Shown: positions 29,209 to 45,427 of the stretch, piece by piece
How positions within the stretch are numbered: position 1 is the first letter of the stretch
Layout: each line of letters begins with the position of its first letter
Assembly (NCBI RefSeq): GCF_001677475.2
Contig: NZ_CP015229.1
Strand: one strand, 5' to 3'
Length of the DNA stretch: 64,000 bases
Source of the DNA: Escherichia coli
GTDB lineage: Bacteria > Pseudomonadota > Gammaproteobacteria > Enterobacterales > Enterobacteriaceae
Position numbers and translations under genes: made by a program
The notes under the pieces: model-generated
What the model saw: the letters and a program-made list of their open reading frames with translations, nothing else
What the model was told of the DNA's origin: nothing
Databases searched by the model: none

Positions 29209-29773
29209 ATGGCAAAAGAATTAAGTGGCGCACTGTGGTTCAGTCGCTTTCCTGGAAGTTCTTCCACTAATGATTTGCAGGGGACTTTTCGTGCATCGGT
29301 AGATAATTTTTTGCGCGCGCATTGGTAATGCGCGTGCAAGGGTCAGTATCTCTGCAACATATCGCCCTCCCGCCAGAGCATATCTCATGCACTGGTCATG
29401 GTTGATTGCTCATGAAATCGTTCAGGCAAAAAACGTCCCGGCGATGGAGGGGGTGGATATTGAGTGGGTTCACCCGACTGAGCAAGCCTCGCTTGAAGCG
29501 GCGCAGGCTATGGTTACGGCCTATGGTATTAATAATCTGAATGTCGCGCCTGCACTGAGCTCCAACCATACACGCGGTACTGCGATAGATATGAATATCA
29601 GTTGGAGCGGAACATTAACAATTGCGGGGAGCAATGGTCAGAATGTTGCAATTAATACACTACCTCGAACCGGAATGAATGCCCAGCTTCAGGCGGTAGG
29701 TCTGGGTTACGGCGTCAGAAAATTTGTTGGCGGCAATACAGATATACCTCACTGGTCAATTGATGGACATTAA
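29209..29773 (+). pseudogene. Frameshifted peptidase M15 (VanY-like zinc D-Ala-D-Ala carboxypeptidase fold) candidate T6SS effector
   Basis: ATG 29209 with ggag RBS opens a 39-codon frame ending taa 29326..29328; peptidase frame continues in +1 from 29303 (track ORF 29387..29773) with SxHxxGxAxD (SNHTRGTAID) and distal His; T6 run 29307..29312 and (GC)4 are the likely slip site. Confidence 0.6.
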
Positions 29774-34404: not shown

Positions 34405-35748
34405 ATGAGTTGGAATAACCGGGTGGTCTGGAGTGAAGGACAATTTTTGTTGCCACAGATGTTTCAGCAGCAGGAACGCTATCTGGAACATGTCATTCAT
34501 TATCGCAGTTTGCCTCTTTCACCTTTTTACTGGGGTTTCAATGAGTATGGTATTGGTAGTGAGGCGCTGAACATCGGAAAACTGGTACTTACGAAGGCTT
34601 CCGGGGTATTTGCTGACGGTACACCTTTTAATGCGCCGGGTCATACACCACTCCCGCCGCCGCTGACCATCCTTCCAGAACATCTTAACCAGTTGATTTA
34701 TCTGGCTGTGCCAATACGTACGCCGAACAGTGAAGAAACCAGTTTCGACAATAACCCTGAATCACTGGCACGTTTTTCGGTACATGAAAGTGAAATCCGT
34801 GATGCCAATTCGCTGGGGCGAGGCGCGCAACTGCTGCAACTTAGCCACCTGCGCTTGCGACTGTTACCGGAAAAGGCGGTGACAGACGCGTGGATCGGCC
34901 TGCCGCTGACGCGCATCACGGCGCTGCATCCCGATGGTCGGGTCGATATAGACAAAGAGTTGATCCCGCCAGTGGCGAACTACCAGGCCAGTACGCTGAT
35001 ATGTACCTGGCTGTCGTGGATTAACGATCTGATAAAAATGCGTGCAGATTCGCTGGCGGAACGATTGACGGGGAGCGACAAACACGGTCATGAAGCGGCG
35101 GAAGTGTCGGATTACCTGCTTCTGCAAGTTCTTAATCGTTTCGGCCCCTTATTGATCCATATGTCGAAAACGCCGCTATCGCCTGAAGTACTTTATCGTA
35201 ACCTCTGCGCACTGGCCGGAGAACTCTCTACCTACGTGCGTCCGCAAACACGTCGTCCGGAAGAATATAAAGAATATAAGCACCTGACGCCCTATGCCGG
35301 GCTGAAATCGGTGGTGGACGAGGTTCAGTATCTACTGAATGCTGTGCTAATACGTGGGGCGCAGCGAATCCCTCTGGAAGAGGGAACTTACGGTATTCTC
35401 AATGCGGTGGTTGAACCTACCGAACTGTCAGATTTCAGCTCGTTAGTATTGGCGGTGAAGGCACAGATGTCCGCCGACACCTTACTACAACATTTTTCGG
35501 CTCAGACCAAAATAGGGCCGTCAGAACGCCTGCCGGAACTGATTCGCTCGCACCTTCCTGGTCTTGTTCTACAGGTGCTGCCAGTGCCACCGCGTCAGAT
35601 CCCGTTCCAGTCCGGTTACATCTATTACGACATCCGCCGCGACGGCGTGTTGTGGGAACATATCGCCCGCTATGGTGGCATGGCAATGCATACCGCCGGA
35701 GAGTTTCCAGGGCTGGAGCTGGAGCTGTGGGGAGTTCGCGATAAATGA
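34405..35748 (+). CDS. tssK: T6SS baseplate protein TssK
   Basis: 447-aa ORF; position between tssJ and tssL. Confidence 0.88.
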   Translation: MSWNNRVVWSEGQFLLPQMFQQQERYLEHVIHYRSLPLSPFYWGFNEYGIGSEALNIGKLVLTKASGVFADGTPFNAPGHTPLPPPLTILPEHLNQLIYLAVPIRTPNSEETSFDNNPESLARFSVHESEIRDANSLGRGAQLLQLSHLRLRLLPEKAVTDAWIGLPLTRITALHPDGRVDIDKELIPPVANYQASTLICTWLSWINDLIKMRADSLAERLTGSDKHGHEAAEVSDYLLLQVLNRFGPLLIHMSKTPLSPEVLYRNLCALAGELSTYVRPQTRRPEEYKEYKHLTPYAGLKSVVDEVQYLLNAVLIRGAQRIPLEEGTYGILNAVVEPTELSDFSSLVLAVKAQMSADTLLQHFSAQTKIGPSERLPELIRSHLPGLVLQVLPVPPRQIPFQSGYIYYDIRRDGVLWEHIARYGGMAMHTAGEFPGLELELWGVRDK

Positions 35749-36464
35749 CCGACGATATTCTGACGCAACCTGCGGTGAATACCCTGCAATTACAGCCTTC
35801 AATGAGGGGAACAAGGTCGCCTGATAATGACGGTTACGATACGCTCGTCCAGGACAGCCTTCGCAGGGAAGATATAAAGGTGGTGGTTGAAGACGGGCCA
35901 GATTTGAAGCTCCGCTTGGCTGAGATCACTGCTGCTGTGAATCCTCTTCTGGCGGCGGCCAGCCCTCTGTTATGCGCGCTGGCGCAAATGCCCCGTGAAC
36001 TTTCCCCTGGTTTTGTCGAACATTATCGCGCCCTACTGGAGCGTGAAGTCCGCCGGTATCAGACGCTGTGCGACCAGGCAAACCTGCGCCGCGAACATGT
36101 GCTGGCGGTACGTTACTGCGTGTGCACGGCGCTGGATGAAGCTGCCAACAACACCGTCTGGGGGCGACGCGGTGTCTGGGCCGGGAAGAGCCTGCTGGTG
36201 ACTTTTCATGGCGAAAGTGAAGGCGGCATCAAGCTGTTTCAGATAATCGGGCGTCTGGCCGCCAGCTTCCAGGAGCACAGCGATGTACTGGAAATCATTT
36301 ACCACATTCTGGGACTGGGTTTTGAAGGCCGCTACAGTGTACGGCCTGACGGGCGTAAACAACTGGACGATATCCGCCAGCAACTGCTGACTCAACTGGT
36401 CCAGCGTCGCGATCCGATCACGCCGACGCTCTTGCCGGGTTTTGCCGGTGCCGTCAGTGGGTGA
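35745..36464 (+). CDS. tssL: TssL cytoplasmic DotU-like domain (239 aa), ends at in-frame TGA before its expected membrane anchor
   Basis: 4-nt overlap with tssK; no TM helix in this ORF; stop 36462..36464 immediately followed in-frame by ATG of the next ORF. Confidence 0.7.
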   Translation: MTDDILTQPAVNTLQLQPSMRGTRSPDNDGYDTLVQDSLRREDIKVVVEDGPDLKLRLAEITAAVNPLLAAASPLLCALAQMPRELSPGFVEHYRALLEREVRRYQTLCDQANLRREHVLAVRYCVCTALDEAANNTVWGRRGVWAGKSLLVTFHGESEGGIKLFQIIGRLAASFQEHSDVLEIIYHILGLGFEGRYSVRPDGRKQLDDIRQQLLTQLVQRRDPITPTLLPGFAGAVSG

Positions 36465-37061
36465 ATGCGGCGGATGCGCCGGGTGCCGGTCTGGCTGAGC
36501 GCCGGAATCGCCCTGCTGGTGATGCTGACGCTGTTTGGCCTTTACAGCCACCGGATGAACCTCGCCACCGAAACCGTACAACAGCGTATCGACGCCATTG
36601 GTAAAAATCTTCCGCCGCCACCCGTTCCGGTGCATAAACTGCGGTTGAAAATCCTGCTGGCGAACGAAATCGCCCGTGGCCTGCTGACGGTGGAGGAAGA
36701 TGACCATCACAGCCGTGTAATCTTTCGTGGCGATACGATGTTTATACCGGGGCAGAAAACCGTGAATGATGCGCTGCGCCCGGTGATTGACAAGGCCGCG
36801 CGTGAGATTGCGCGTGTGGGGGGCGCGGTGACGGTGACCGGCCACACGGACAGCCAGCCGATCCACTCCGCTGAATTCCCGTCCAACCAGGTATTGTCGG
36901 AAAAACGTGCGGCAGAAGTAGCTTCGCTGCTGACATCTGGTGGCGTTCCGGCTAGCCGAATTCGGGGTGTCGGTAAAGGGGATACTATGCCGGTGGCTGA
37001 TAATAGTACTAAAACTGGACGAGCGCAGAATCGCCGGGTGGAAATTCTGGTGGTGGAGTGA
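36465..37061 (+). CDS. TM helix plus OmpA/MotB-like peptidoglycan-binding domain (expected C-terminal part of a long-form TssL)
   Basis: 198-aa ORF; TM segment WLSAGIALLVMLTLFGLY then OmpA-like motifs (TGHTDSQP…NQVLSEKRA…NRRVEI). Confidence 0.7.
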   Translation: MRRMRRVPVWLSAGIALLVMLTLFGLYSHRMNLATETVQQRIDAIGKNLPPPPVPVHKLRLKILLANEIARGLLTVEEDDHHSRVIFRGDTMFIPGQKTVNDALRPVIDKAAREIARVGGAVTVTGHTDSQPIHSAEFPSNQVLSEKRAAEVASLLTSGGVPASRIRGVGKGDTMPVADNSTKTGRAQNRRVEILVVE

Positions 37062-37069
37062 ATTAATAA

Positions 37070-37755
37070 TGGAAAAGCTAGAGTGTAATGCGTCTAACCA
37101 TTCGCCAGTGTGGGGAGTAACAGAATTTATATTCTGGAAACTGGCGCCTAAAAAATGGGGGGGAGGCGTAGCATTTGGGCGTTATTTTAAAGATGGTTGG
37201 GTGAAGCATAACGGTCTTTTGATCAATGCAGCTGCAAATGCCTGGCATTTACCTGCCCCCTTACTTGCTGGAGTTTGTTGGATTGAAGTAGGGGGTGATC
37301 CTCAGATTATAGACACGCTGGCATTTGAATTTCGTGCTATGAGTTGGAGTGGGCCTGAATGGGTTGATGAACATATCACAATCGCTTCGAAACCAGAAAA
37401 AACTTCTTTTGGTGCGGTGAGTATGCAATTGCGAACTGCAGCCAGAACACTCGGGCTTGATGAGACTAAAATGGACAACTCTCAGTTGCGTGAGCTGGCA
37501 AATTGTCTCCAGCATGATGTGTTTAATATACAATTAGCTGCAAGACATCTTTATCAATTGGCTGAAAAAGATGGTTTTCAGGTATCCTTACCTCACCTGA
37601 CAAAAGAACAAATAAGAATTATTGGAGCTCGTTATAATCGAGGTGTTTCCCTTAGTCTGGAAAAAATAAAGGAAGATACCAGCTATGGCGATTTTATTAT
37701 AAATAACTGGTTACATTTCTCTAGTTTATTAATAACTACCTGGAAGTCTTCATGA
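37070..37755 (+). CDS. Lysozyme-like / lytic-transglycosylase-like protein without signal peptide; candidate Tge-type effector or T6SS-associated murein hydrolase
   Basis: AT-rich; start MEKLECN chosen after OmpA ORF stop (track 36940 start overlaps it); motifs CWIEVGG, FGAVSMQL, IGARYNRG resemble GH23 E…S / GLMQ / AYN-G. Confidence 0.4.
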
Positions 37756-38039
37756 GAAAAATAATTCAGATATCAGGGTGGTTATTATTTATTATGGGAT
37801 TGGTCACTATCATGCTTTTTTCCGGGAGTGAGTACCAGTGGATGCAGGATATGGACCCTTCAATAACAGCATTACCTCAGGGAAACGGAAATAGAGATGT
37901 AATCAGAAAATTAATTTATTCTATTTCAGTGGCTATTCAGATTGTTCTTTATTTTCTTTCAGTATCGCGTACAGGAAAGGGATTTTCAGCCCTGGGTATT
38001 TTGCTATTACTGATTACCGCATGGAGCTCTGAACAATAA
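37752..38039 (+). CDS. Small two-TM membrane protein; candidate immunity
   Basis: 95-aa ORF coupled (ATGA) to the upstream gene; hydrophobic segments WLLFIMGLVTIMLF and LGILLLLITAW. Confidence 0.4.
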   Translation: MRKIIQISGWLLFIMGLVTIMLFSGSEYQWMQDMDPSITALPQGNGNRDVIRKLIYSISVAIQIVLYFLSVSRTGKGFSALGILLLLITAWSSEQ

Positions 38040-41000
38040 TGCAAAAATTTCTCAGTCTGCTGTTTTCCCGCCGCACACTGGCCGTTGTCGGCGTGGTGGT
38101 GCTGGCGTTGCTGGTCTGGTTTATCGGGCCGCTGGTGGCGTTTGACACCTTGCATCCGCTTGCGTCCGTGGGTAGCCGGGTAGTCACTATCGTTCTGTTA
38201 CTGATGTTCCTTGCACTGTGGCTGGTTAACTGGTCGATGAGCATCATTGGCGTTACGGTTCTGTGCCTGGTTATCGGCTTTGTCTCACCGTTGCTGGCCT
38301 TCGGTGATGTTTATCCATTTGCGCCGCTGTGGCTGCGTCTGACGCTTATCGGCCTGATCCTTCTGTCTTATACGCTGTATGGCCTGTACCGATTGTGGCG
38401 GGCGCTGCGTCTGGATGAACAACTGCTGCGCCGTTTCCTGCATCCGCGCGGGGAAGATGTTCCGGTGGCAGGGGAAATTAAAGCCGACTTACGCACCGTC
38501 AGCCATATTGTCACTCGCGCTATTCGGCAACTGAAGCAACTGCGCGTAGACCTGCCGGGTTGGCGTAAGGTGCTGGAAGGAAAGCGTTTTCTGTACGAAC
38601 TGCCGTGGTTCATGGTTATCGGCAGCCCCGGTGATGGTAAAACTACCGCGCTGCTTAACACCGGGCTACAGTTTCCGCTGGCGGAGCAGATGGAGCAGAC
38701 CGCGCATATCCTTACCGTGCCGGGCGGCGGCACGCTGCACTGCGACTGGTGGTTCACCAACGAAGCGGTGCTCATTGACACTGCCGGGCGCTATGCCCGC
38801 CACGATGACGGCGGTGAAATCAGTGCGACCCAGCGCAACGCCGGGGAATGGCAGGGGTTTCTGGGACTGCTGCGTAAACACCGTCCCGGCGCACCGCTGA
38901 ACGGCGTTATCCTGACGCTAAACGTGGCGGATCTGACCGCGCAGTCCCCGGCGGAACGACTGGCTGCCTGTGCGGCTTTGCGTGCGCGGCTGGCTGAACT
39001 GCGTGAGACGCTGGGTATTCGTTTCCCGGTTTATCTGGTTGTCACTAAGATGGATCTGCTGCCGGGCTTTACGGAGTATTTCCGTGGGCTGACCAGTCAC
39101 CTGCGTGCCCAGGTCTGGGGCTTCACCCTGCCATACAGCCGCAGGCGTCACGCCAGCGATCCGCAGTCGTTGCATGCGCTCTGTGGCCAGGAACTGGCAA
39201 ATCTGACGCTGCGGCTGGATCAGGGGCTGGATACCCGGTTGCAGGAAGAGTACGACCTTAAAAGCCGTCAACGGCTCTACCGCTTTCCGCGCGAATTTGC
39301 CGCGCTGGGCGCGCCGCTGCTGGAAGCCATTGAACAGATTTTCCTCGATTCAAAATTTGACGCCACTCAGCTTAACAACACCCTACGCGGCGTATTTTTT
39401 ACCAGCGCCGCACAGGCGCAGGCAGACGCGGTGGCCGATCAGACGGGCATCTGGCAGCGCTTTGTCCGGGCGATCAAAGGGAAAGTGGAGTCACCTTCTC
39501 ATACCTTACCGGACGGCAACCGCAGCTATTTTCTTCATGACCTACTGACCCAGTTTATCTTCCGTGAAGCACACCTGGTGGAGCCGAATCTTCAATGGGC
39601 CTGGCGTTATCGCCTGCTGCGTACTGGCGGGCATCTGCTGGTACTAGCGTTGGCTTTCTGGTTGTGGCAGGGAATGCAGGGCAGCCAGCAGGGTAACAGC
39701 GGCTATCTGAATGAAATCGCCAGCCGGACGGTCCAACTGGATGGTGACGTCAAAGCCTATACCGGAAAACCTGCTATGCAGCCTGTCCCAGTCCTGTTGA
39801 ACCAGGCGCGGGCGCTCTCTGCCTGGCCGGGGCTGGACCCGGACTCACCGCCGCTGGCCTGGCGTTATGGTCTTTACAGCGTTCCGCCAGTAATGGAGAG
39901 CGTCGCATCCCTGTATGACCGTCTGCTGGACCAGCTCCTATTGCCGCCACTGGTGAAGCGCATGGAATATGTGCTTTCAGATGCCATTGCTCGTCAGGAC
40001 AGCAAAGCCGCGTATGACGCTCTGCATGTTTATCTGCTGCTGAATCTTGATAAAGACCACGAGGACAAATACAACGCAGCGGAGATCCACGCCTGGGTAC
40101 TGAACGATCTGGAAAACCGCGATAGCGTGGCGGAGTTCGGCGGCCGTGCAGCAGTGCTGGAACATATCGACGCCCTGTTTGACGGCAGCCGTGTGGTGCA
40201 TTCGCCTTATGACAAAGATGAGGGACTGATCCGCATGGCGCGGGCTTTCCTTGACGGTCATACCAGCACCGAGCGTATCTATACTCGAGCCCTGGCTTCC
40301 ATGGAGAGCGAAGCACCGCAGGAGTTTTCGCTGGTTCGCGCGGTGGGCGCGGATGCGGGGACGGTTTTTGTCCGCACGGATGGCGCGCCACTGGATAGGG
40401 GCGTGCCCGGCATCTTTACTCGCGAAGGCTACCGGGAACTGTTCGACAAACGGCTGTCGGAGTTTGTCGCCTCCGCATCAGCGGACGACGCCTGGGTAAT
40501 GGGCCGGGAAAACGCGCAAAAAAAAACGACTGATATTGTGATGAGCCAGTTGCCGGGGCAGGAACTCCCGGTTACCCGTGAGGTACGCCGCCTGTATCTG
40601 GCTGAATATGCCCGCCGCTGGCAGGATTTTCTGGCTAGTATTCACAGCATCAACAGTGCCGGGGAAGACGGTAGTCCCGGACTGGCGTATGACCTTCAGG
40701 TGCTTCGCACACTGGCCTCGCCTGACTCACCTCTGATGCGCCTGAGTAAAGCGGTGGTGGAGCAGACCACGCTGGTACCGCCGCTGGATGCGCAGGCCAG
40801 ACAAAAACAAATGGCCCAGCGCGCGCAGGACCGGCTCTCCGGTAATGCGGGTAAAGCAGTGCAGACGGCAAAGCTGTTGCAGGATATCCACCCGGAAGAG
40901 CGGCTGGAAAAATCGCTGGTGGATGACCGTTTCGCCGCTCTGCGGGAAGTGGTTTCCGGGCGGACGGACAGTGGACAGGGGGGCGGGGCGCCGCAGTTAA

Positions 41001-41905
41001 ATTCGCTGCTGACAATGCTCAATGAGTATTACACCCAGCTCACCATCGCCGACAGTGCATTGGCAGCGAGCACATTACCGGGCCGCATTTCGGCGGCGGA
41101 TAAACTACAACTGGAAGCGGCAAAACTGCCCGCACCGCTGAAAAATATTCTGCTGGATCTCACGCAGCAGGGAACGCGAAAGATCAACGCCGGCACCGGT
41201 GAAGTGCTGAACGCGCAGATGGAGGCGGTGATCGGTGATGAGTGCCGTGACGCCATTGACGGGCGCTATCCCTTCACCGACAGCCCGCAGGAAGTCAGCG
41301 CGGACGATTTTAACCGTATCTTTGCTAGCGGCGGTGTGCTGGATGCCTTCTGGACGAAGCAACTGGCCCCGCTGGCGGATACCGCCAGCAACCCGTGGCG
41401 ATACAAACCGACCGAAGGCAACATGACTTTACAGGGGCCGGACCTGACGCCGTTTCAGGAGGCGAAACAGATCCGCAGCGTGTTTTTTAACGGCGACGGC
41501 GGGAAAAAGTTCTCCTGGGCGATGCAGGTCCGCGTCGTGGATATGGACCCGGCCATCACCGAACTGGTGATTGACATTGACGGCCAGGTACTGCGTTACG
41601 CTCACGGCCCGGTCAGGCCGCTGAAAGTGAACTGGCCGGGTCCGCGCAACGGCTCAATGGCGGAAATAACCGCCAGCCCGCGCATCCGCCAGGACACCTC
41701 GACGCTGCTGACTAATGGACCGTGGGCGCTGTTTCACCTGCTGGATGCGGGAAAAGCGCAAGAAACGGCGGTACGGGGAATACAGCAGGTGGAGTACAGC
41801 TTTGACGGGCGGCGGGTGATACTGGAAATCACCGCCGGACGGGATTTTGACCCAGTGGATCGCGGACTATTGCAACTCTTCGCCTGCCCGGAGCGAGCGC
41901 TGTGA
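38039..41905 (+). CDS. tssM: T6SS membrane complex protein TssM (IcmF)
   Basis: 1288-aa ORF; N-terminal TM helices; Walker A GSPGDGKTT. Confidence 0.92.
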   Translation: MQKFLSLLFSRRTLAVVGVVVLALLVWFIGPLVAFDTLHPLASVGSRVVTIVLLLMFLALWLVNWSMSIIGVTVLCLVIGFVSPLLAFGDVYPFAPLWLRLTLIGLILLSYTLYGLYRLWRALRLDEQLLRRFLHPRGEDVPVAGEIKADLRTVSHIVTRAIRQLKQLRVDLPGWRKVLEGKRFLYELPWFMVIGSPGDGKTTALLNTGLQFPLAEQMEQTAHILTVPGGGTLHCDWWFTNEAVLIDTAGRYARHDDGGEISATQRNAGEWQGFLGLLRKHRPGAPLNGVILTLNVADLTAQSPAERLAACAALRARLAELRETLGIRFPVYLVVTKMDLLPGFTEYFRGLTSHLRAQVWGFTLPYSRRRHASDPQSLHALCGQELANLTLRLDQGLDTRLQEEYDLKSRQRLYRFPREFAALGAPLLEAIEQIFLDSKFDATQLNNTLRGVFFTSAAQAQADAVADQTGIWQRFVRAIKGKVESPSHTLPDGNRSYFLHDLLTQFIFREAHLVEPNLQWAWRYRLLRTGGHLLVLALAFWLWQGMQGSQQGNSGYLNEIASRTVQLDGDVKAYTGKPAMQPVPVLLNQARALSAWPGLDPDSPPLAWRYGLYSVPPVMESVASLYDRLLDQLLLPPLVKRMEYVLSDAIARQDSKAAYDALHVYLLLNLDKDHEDKYNAAEIHAWVLNDLENRDSVAEFGGRAAVLEHIDALFDGSRVVHSPYDKDEGLIRMARAFLDGHTSTERIYTRALASMESEAPQEFSLVRAVGADAGTVFVRTDGAPLDRGVPGIFTREGYRELFDKRLSEFVASASADDAWVMGRENAQKKTTDIVMSQLPGQELPVTREVRRLYLAEYARRWQDFLASIHSINSAGEDGSPGLAYDLQVLRTLASPDSPLMRLSKAVVEQTTLVPPLDAQARQKQMAQRAQDRLSGNAGKAVQTAKLLQDIHPEERLEKSLVDDRFAALREVVSGRTDSGQGGGAPQLNSLLTMLNEYYTQLTIADSALAASTLPGRISAADKLQLEAAKLPAPLKNILLDLTQQGTRKINAGTGEVLNAQMEAVIGDECRDAIDGRYPFTDSPQEVSADDFNRIFASGGVLDAFWTKQLAPLADTASNPWRYKPTEGNMTLQGPDLTPFQEAKQIRSVFFNGDGGKKFSWAMQVRVVDMDPAITELVIDIDGQVLRYAHGPVRPLKVNWPGPRNGSMAEITASPRIRQDTSTLLTNGPWALFHLLDAGKAQETAVRGIQQVEYSFDGRRVILEITAGRDFDPVDRGLLQLFACPERAL

Positions 41906-44342: not shown

Positions 44343-45044
44343 ATGACCAAGCTTAAATATGATGAAAACGGCCTGCTAGCAGAATACTATGCAAAAACAG
44401 ATATTGACGGTGATGTCATCACTCACAAAGATGACAGAATGACGTATTTATTAAATAAAAATACTGGCTCTATTTCTGTAGTGATAAAGTGGAAGTATGA
44501 GTGGTATAAGGATAATACCGTTACAGATGACTGGACTGTATTGGAAAAAGCTATTTTCATGAGATCAGTATATTTATCTGTTCAACAGGCATGGAATGGG
44601 AAAATAACTTATTCTGTTTCCGGTGAATCTGAGTTCGCTAAAAAATTTCAGGGGAAAGCTTTGCCTTTTGATGTGAGGATAATCCCTGTATCTCAGAATG
44701 AAGACTGGTTGGTAATTGCAACTAAAGTTTTGCCTGGTGCTGATTTAAGAACGTATGTTGATTTTAAGAACAGCACGGTTCATGTTGACTCAGCAGACCT
44801 GGAAAAAGTAGCAAAATGTTTTAATTGTAACAATACAGTGCAAATAAATATACCACATGAAGCCGGACATGTACTTGGTTACTTAGATGATGATTATGAT
44901 TCTTCGTCTCCGTATGTTGGAGATGTTAGTGGGCTGATGAATATGGGAATGGAACTCCGGGAAAGATATCTTAAAAACTCAACTATAACGTTGAATGTAA
45001 TAATGCCTGATACTAACTTCACTCTATTGAATGTAACCAAATGA
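44343..45044 (+). CDS. Putative zinc metallopeptidase toxin (HExxHxxGxxD motif), no signal peptide; candidate T6SS effector
   Basis: 233-aa AT-rich ORF; HEAGHVLGYLDD; immediately upstream of vgrG. Confidence 0.5.
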   Translation: MTKLKYDENGLLAEYYAKTDIDGDVITHKDDRMTYLLNKNTGSISVVIKWKYEWYKDNTVTDDWTVLEKAIFMRSVYLSVQQAWNGKITYSVSGESEFAKKFQGKALPFDVRIIPVSQNEDWLVIATKVLPGADLRTYVDFKNSTVHVDSADLEKVAKCFNCNNTVQINIPHEAGHVLGYLDDDYDSSSPYVGDVSGLMNMGMELRERYLKNSTITLNVIMPDTNFTLLNVTK

Positions 45045-45427
45045 AATTAATCTGTATTATAGTGTTCTTTCTTTCAATAAATTACGTAATCACAGCAAAT
45101 GTTTTCGAGCCTTCTGTAGTTTTTCAATCTCCCAGGTATTATGAGGAAAATGATATACAGAATGGAAATAACGATGCTTTTTTTGTGAAAAAATACGGCC
45201 CGCCTGTTCATGAGTTCATGAAGCCACGATATAAGTTTGCCGGTGAATATTATATCGGCTTGAATCAGACTTATCGCATCACAAACCCTGAATTTAAAGA
45301 TGTGCCTATTAAAGAAATGTTCTGGAATCTGCAAGAGGATTTAAATCTTACATGCTGGTTCCATTATAAAGACGGGCAGTGGCGGGTTATTTCTTATATT
45401 TTTTGGCCACCAGGGGCTAAATTTTAA
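45041..45427 (+). CDS. Secreted small protein, candidate immunity for the metallopeptidase
   Basis: 128-aa ORF, ATGA-coupled; N-terminal signal peptide (MKLICIIVFFLSINYVITANVF). Confidence 0.45.
   Translation: MKLICIIVFFLSINYVITANVFEPSVVFQSPRYYEENDIQNGNNDAFFVKKYGPPVHEFMKPRYKFAGEYYIGLNQTYRITNPEFKDVPIKEMFWNLQEDLNLTCWFHYKDGQWRVISYIFWPPGAKF

Follow-up and report, generated by a model that had tools for sequence, protein, structure and literature searches.

A premature TGA codon between the DotU domain and the transmembrane and OmpA-like parts of long-form TssL in an Escherichia coli type VI secretion island

We analyzed a stretch of Escherichia coli DNA of 64,000 nucleotides (hereafter, the window) that carries a type VI secretion system (T6SS) island and found its tssL gene to be divided into two reading frames by a single in-frame stop codon. 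TssL resides in the inner membrane and is essential to the membrane complex of the T6SS. The features of the locus and of its surroundings are the following:

29209..29773, + strand: accessory gene 3' of tssH/clpV, frameshifted (aligned in two frames by tblastn)
34405..35748, + strand: tssK, intact, with a 4-nt overlap with the tssL start (TIGR03353, E 4.7e-120)
35745..37061, + strand: tssL, long form, 438 codons with one premature stop (tblastn and RefSeq annotation of orthologues)
35745..36461, with the stop to 36464, + strand: 5' fragment (ORF1), 239 codons long, encoding the cytoplasmic DotU/TssL domain but not its membrane anchor
36433, + strand: private C>T change, TCG>TTG (Ser230Leu), located ten codons 5' of the stop (TCG in all compared E. 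coli alleles)
36462..36464, + strand: premature stop TGA at codon 240 (alignment and codon lists)
36465..37061, + strand: 3' fragment (ORF2) of 198 codons, opening at the adjacent ATG and encoding the transmembrane (TM) helix and the periplasmic OmpA-like peptidoglycan-binding domain
36483..36545, + strand: single TM segment, residues 247-267 of the joined TssL and 7-27 of ORF2 (Kyte-Doolittle)
36642..37052, + strand: OmpA-like peptidoglycan-binding domain (TIGR03350; PF00691 in homologues)
38039..41905, + strand: tssM, intact, encoding the membrane-complex partner of TssL (tblastn over 1288/1288 aa, no stops)

An earlier note on this DNA had described a DotU reading frame of 239 codons ending at the TGA and a second frame opening at the adjacent in-frame ATG with a TM helix and an OmpA-like domain, and the sequence and the list of open reading frames bear out both descriptions. 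The two frames are in register (36465 - 35745 = 720 = 3 x 240), and gene callers place the start of ORF2 at the GTG at 36483, giving a product of 192 aa. Among the NCBIfam models, TIGR03349 (DotU/TssL) matched residues 66-236 of ORF1 with an E-value of 3.8e-53 (180 bits, cut-off 89.95), and TIGR03350 (type_VI_ompA, "TssL, long form") matched residues 60-196 of ORF2 with an E-value of 2.7e-49 (166.6 bits, cut-off 139.8). The longer profile NF005999 (432 positions) was covered by ORF1 at positions 17-234 and by ORF2 at positions 238-432, with scores of 308 and 321 bits, neither half reaching the cut-off of 571 bits; as the two frames match consecutive positions of this one profile, they are successive halves of one protein. 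A Kyte-Doolittle analysis detected no hydrophobic segment in ORF1. The top 19-residue windows, with a mean of about 2.08, fell in VPVWLSAGIALLVMLTLFGLY, the sole strongly hydrophobic stretch of the joined TssL, which is encoded 3' of the stop, such that ORF1 terminates seven codons ahead of the only TM segment. The DotU domain, the TM helix and the C-terminal OmpA-like domain that characterize long-form TssL are thus each present in the window, while the uninterrupted polypeptide that should contain all three is broken by the TGA at codon 240. The family is represented at this locus by a disrupted long-form tssL gene and not by an intact member.

The intact E. coli TssL (438 aa) aligned with the window by tblastn at 35745..37058 with 97.7% identity, without gaps and with exactly one stop, and the orthologues are entered in RefSeq as one undivided "tssL, long form" coding sequence. 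The closest of the known systems are the long-form ("evolved") TssL proteins of the E. coli aspV-island T6SS (WP_059341500.1 of strain 2012C-4221 and WP_052920659.1 of JNEC-KY177), which represent the same gene located between tssK and tssM and share the order of DotU, TM and OmpA; the window gene is 97.6% identical to them in nucleotides and about 98% in amino acids, and it differs in having TGA for CGA at codon 240 and leucine for serine at residue 230. Further long-form orthologues are found in the Salmonella SPI-6-type cluster, Citrobacter and Enterobacter.

To learn which codon occupies the stop site in other strains, as the earlier note had proposed, we aligned 36400..36520 with three E. 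coli genomes and found CGA (Arg240) opposite the TGA and ATG (Met241) in all of them. We then searched complete E. coli genomes with 41-nt queries centred on codon 240, using megablast with a word of 28 nt so that any match contains the codon exactly. The two queries with CGA matched in 21 and 91 complete genomes, while the two corresponding queries with TGA matched in none of 5426; a sense codon, CGA, was thus present in 112/112 complete genomes carrying the stretch, and TGA in 0. At 91-97.6% nucleotide identity, tssL was found in 115 complete E. coli genomes as one 438-codon "tssL, long form" coding sequence. From these comparisons, the stop is derived, a single C>T transition from an ancestral CGA (Arg240), and the ATG of ORF2 is the ancestral Met241 codon; the idea that it evolved as a start codon was rejected on this ground.

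More distant homologues gave the same picture. A protein search with the repaired TssL returned matches from Escherichia, Citrobacter, Enterobacter, Salmonella, Snodgrassella, Paraburkholderia, Burkholderia, Variovorax and others, and virtually all of the about 120 best matches listed were 410-475 aa long and combined PF09850 (DotU) with PF00691 (OmpA), the shorter entries among them being contig-end partials or other truncations. TssL of Salmonella and other enterobacteria is continuous across the junction, reading "SGR(M/L)RRMRRVPVWLSAG", with glutamine in place of arginine in one case. Salmonella sciP/sciQ had been considered as a possible natural split and was set aside, the Salmonella protein sequences being among those continuous at this point.

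The surroundings of the gene are those of an otherwise well-preserved island. Towards its two ends the window consists of E. coli core genome (about 98.7% identity): rrn, proS, mltD and metN lie at one end, yafV and fadE at the other. Annotated E. coli genomes have the T6SS island beside tRNA-Asp (aspV), after dnaQ, in the order tssA-G-F-E-tagJ-tagK / tssH ... tssB-C ... hcp-tssJ-tssK-tssL-(cargo)-tssM ... tagF ... vgrG-rhs; the window retains the same arrangement in hcp-tssJ-tssK-tssL-(2 ORFs)-tssM. We compared 25 proteins of the intact cluster of JNEC-KY177 with the window using tblastn and found the core genes tssA, B, C, E, F, G, H, J, K and M and hcp to be full length and free of stops, leaving tssL as the only core gene in the window with a stop. 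TssK is identical in amino acids (100%) to that of JNEC-KY177, and the vgrG reading frame of the window is complete, with 737 codons.

A codon-by-codon comparison with four E. coli alleles left the window with two private changes and no others between codons 1 and 387, S230L and R240stop, both of them C>T, and with no more frameshifts or stops in tssL downstream of codon 240. As tssL shows no additional damage and the other core T6SS genes are intact, the lesion is recent. The allele was also rare: in a collection of 15 billion proteins covering NCBI and Logan assemblies, the exact 239-aa product occurred on 3-4 contigs only and the 192-aa C-terminal product on 3 contigs, and contig NJSK01000030.1 of assembly GCA_002516285.1 was the same as the window over all 6720 nt fetched. 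Exact matches to the window were absent from the complete E. coli genomes, for which reason Shigella was considered as a source; the idea was dropped in view of the draft contig, and the named members of the same protein clusters are labelled Escherichia coli. Judging by this distribution, the TGA allele is restricted to one narrow lineage, and a recent, lineage-specific nonsense mutation is the most likely account of the tssL stop. The CGA>TGA change is a case of ordinary gene decay, an event of a kind already known.

A second lesion lies elsewhere in the island. The accessory gene 3' of tssH, which in other E. coli encodes a protein of 187 aa named "peptidoglycan-binding domain-containing protein" in RefSeq, carries a 1-bp insertion in the window, an extra A near 29321 in comparison with two references. 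A 128-aa fragment of the frameshifted gene was present on 10 contigs, including a 5.5-Mb genome, and because of this occurrence the accessory-gene lesion predates the tssL stop and is more widespread.

Other strains have lost different parts of the same island. In LHM10-1, tssL (L008:6238-7554) has a stop at codon 129, reported by PGAP as an internal stop, and the 128-aa fragment ending there occurs on about 36 contigs; in VE-T9, a tssL frameshift, flagged as a pseudogene by PGAP, is accompanied by an internal stop in tssK. In a further cluster (L006), tssB and tssM are split and Tae4 is truncated, and in JNEC-KY177, vgrG is frameshifted. The tssL genes of LHM10-1 and VE-T9 resemble that of the window in being independent disruptions of the same gene in the same island, although they differ from it in the position and type of the lesion, the window stop being located exactly at the domain boundary. 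Taken across E. coli lineages, inactivation of the T6SS island looks recurrent and independent, and the tssL stop adds one more case to these frequent events.

The probable effect of the stop can be judged from an engineered allele of a paralogous E. coli system. In the Sci-1 T6SS of EAEC, a TssL protein terminated at residue 184 (Y184stop, TssL-deltaTM), a few residues before the TM segment at 189-211, was stable and soluble, being found in the cytoplasmic fraction at normal levels (Aschtgen et al. 2012, PMC3426401), and it restored neither Hcp release nor biofilm formation (PMC3426401). The window allele resembles this construct in that the stop is placed a few residues before a single C-terminal TM segment and would leave a soluble DotU domain. 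It is unlike the construct in that the latter was engineered in a short-form TssL, from another T6SS subtype, and had neither an OmpA extension nor a restart codon next to the stop; nor was the detached TM segment co-expressed in the experiment; the loss of function was measured in EAEC and is deduced for the window. As the window allele is the natural equivalent of the EAEC stop before the TM segment, we expect the T6SS to be null or severely impaired, which agrees with the suggestion of the earlier note that separating the DotU domain from its anchor would inactivate the apparatus.

In the course of events that we propose, translation would end at codon 240 and free the DotU domain as a soluble cytoplasmic protein of 239 aa, unable to join TssM and TssJ in the membrane complex. 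The TM and OmpA remainder, if made at all, would come only from reinitiation, or from weak internal initiation, at the adjacent Met241 ATG and would be without the cytoplasmic domain that docks the baseplate. Assembly and firing of the T6SS would then be lost or nearly lost, as one step in the repeated decay of the island across E. coli. We are largely confident of this reading as a whole, that is, of a recent, lineage-specific CGA>TGA mutation in the single-copy tssL, after which the T6SS would assemble and fire hardly or not at all, and the most likely state of the strain is to be T6SS-null or severely reduced for the cluster of this island. A single tssL pseudogene carrying an internal stop is then the best annotation for ORF1 and ORF2, in place of "DotU" and "OmpA family protein", and the strain should be predicted to be T6SS-negative for the cluster despite a gene set that otherwise looks complete.

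The best-surviving alternative is that TssL is leaky or functional in two pieces, with a T6SS that works at a reduced or heterogeneous level owing to readthrough of the TGA by tRNA-Trp or to noncovalent association of the fragments. UGA is the leakiest stop in E. coli, with readthrough of about 2% at 37 °C and 4% at 25 °C and variation from cell to cell in a K-12 reporter (PMC10570021), and termination-reinitiation, which in E. coli works efficiently only where two frames overlap by, or are separated by, a few nucleotides (PMC10666635), would here meet a favourable gap of 0 nt. Apart from the stop, both halves of tssL are undamaged, as is the remainder of the cluster. A certain amount of full-length R240W protein and of TM-OmpA fragment may thus be produced and may provide residual activity. 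The arrangement does not, however, look conserved or selected: UGA was found in 0/112 complete E. coli genomes, the distant orthologues have Arg or Gln at the site, and both the adjacent ATG and the local RNA fold belong to ancestral sequence that intact tssL genes share without change. The sole Shine-Dalgarno-like match that can be read from the sequence (GGUGA) touches the ATG without a spacer, and the soluble TssL lacking its TM segment was nonfunctional in EAEC (PMC3426401). The comparisons gave no sign of selection on readthrough or reinitiation at the TGA-ATG junction, and we consider a working, leaky or split TssL unlikely. Readthrough had been among the alternatives raised by the earlier note; unprogrammed leakage may occur at a low level, whereas programmed readthrough found no backing in UGA conservation or in an Rfam element.

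A stronger form of the same idea would have the TGA-ATG junction act as a switch, in which readthrough or the reassembly of coupled halves keeps the T6SS active in a fraction of the cells. If true, TssL would be split or leaky by nature in this strain and still support secretion, but we give this only a very slim chance, and the stop would raise a new biological question only if the residual function were real.

It is also highly improbable that the natural strain has CGA at codon 240 and that the TGA stems from a sequencing or assembly error or from a mutation during laboratory passage. The difference is a single base, it is known from 3-4 contigs that perhaps represent one isolate or read set, and the second lesion in the cluster is a 1-bp insertion, all of which would fit an error. 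The tssL change is, however, a substitution outside any homopolymer, and the same 239-aa and 192-aa products were recovered both from an NCBI assembly and from independently assembled Logan contigs, which weakens the proposal of a sequencing error made in the earlier note; the frameshift in the accessory gene, given its fragment on 10 contigs including the 5.5-Mb genome, is at least real and inherited.

That the two frames are a natural two-gene arrangement of DotU and TM-OmpA, or that the UGA is recoded as selenocysteine, has a negligible probability. The two-gene layout, another of the alternatives in the earlier note, is mimicked in the window because the stop falls exactly at the domain boundary, and T6SS clusters with a separate peptidoglycan-binding protein do exist. 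TagL of EAEC Sci-1 is such a protein, and there, as in the window, the peptidoglycan-binding and DotU modules are on separate polypeptides. In the TssL/TagL pair, however, the TM anchor remains part of the DotU protein, and TagL is a separate, polytopic protein, whereas the DotU part in the window has been cut off from the anchor, and by a point mutation. We rejected a natural two-gene arrangement since close and distant orthologues are fused into one reading frame, with CGA or a CAG-type Gln codon at the stop site. A selenocysteine or structured recoding signal was likewise rejected: the search of 36300-36700 against Rfam, SECIS included, returned no match at E<=1, the local RNA fold at the junction was unexceptional (z = -1.98) and formed by sequence shared with intact genes, and the sequence downstream of the TGA is unchanged from those genes.

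Apart from the recent C>T mutation that most likely inactivated tssL, the gene bears the mark of an exchange at its 3' end. Codons 388-430 hold about 25 differences, while the far longer stretch of codons 1-387 holds about 7, and this density marks a recombination boundary and not decay. Over its last ~45 codons tssL follows another allele than that of 2012C-4221 and JNEC-KY177, one tied to a different downstream cassette, and the same C-terminal allele was found elsewhere with an intact R240 (P0002). The dN/dS values of the two tssL halves against JNEC-KY177 were uninformative on relaxed selection, the excess divergence of the C-terminal half reflecting the recombination boundary in the last ~150 nt.

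The cassette 3' of the tssL boundary (36908..38036, + strand) contains two unannotated reading frames of 228 aa and 95 aa, for which we found no NCBIfam or PADLOC match and which are presumably an effector/immunity pair; in the nearest E. coli clusters, Tlde1 and an immunity gene occupy the cassette position 3' of tssL. Compared with JNEC-KY177, tssM has a dS of about 0.23, while tssK, hcp and tssA-G have a dS of 0.01-0.03. By these sequence patterns, the island is a mosaic of alleles. Two reading frames upstream of vgrG (44343..45427, + strand), 233 and 128 aa in length, share only 39% and 52% amino acid identity with their positional counterparts in JNEC-KY177 and form a further variable cassette.
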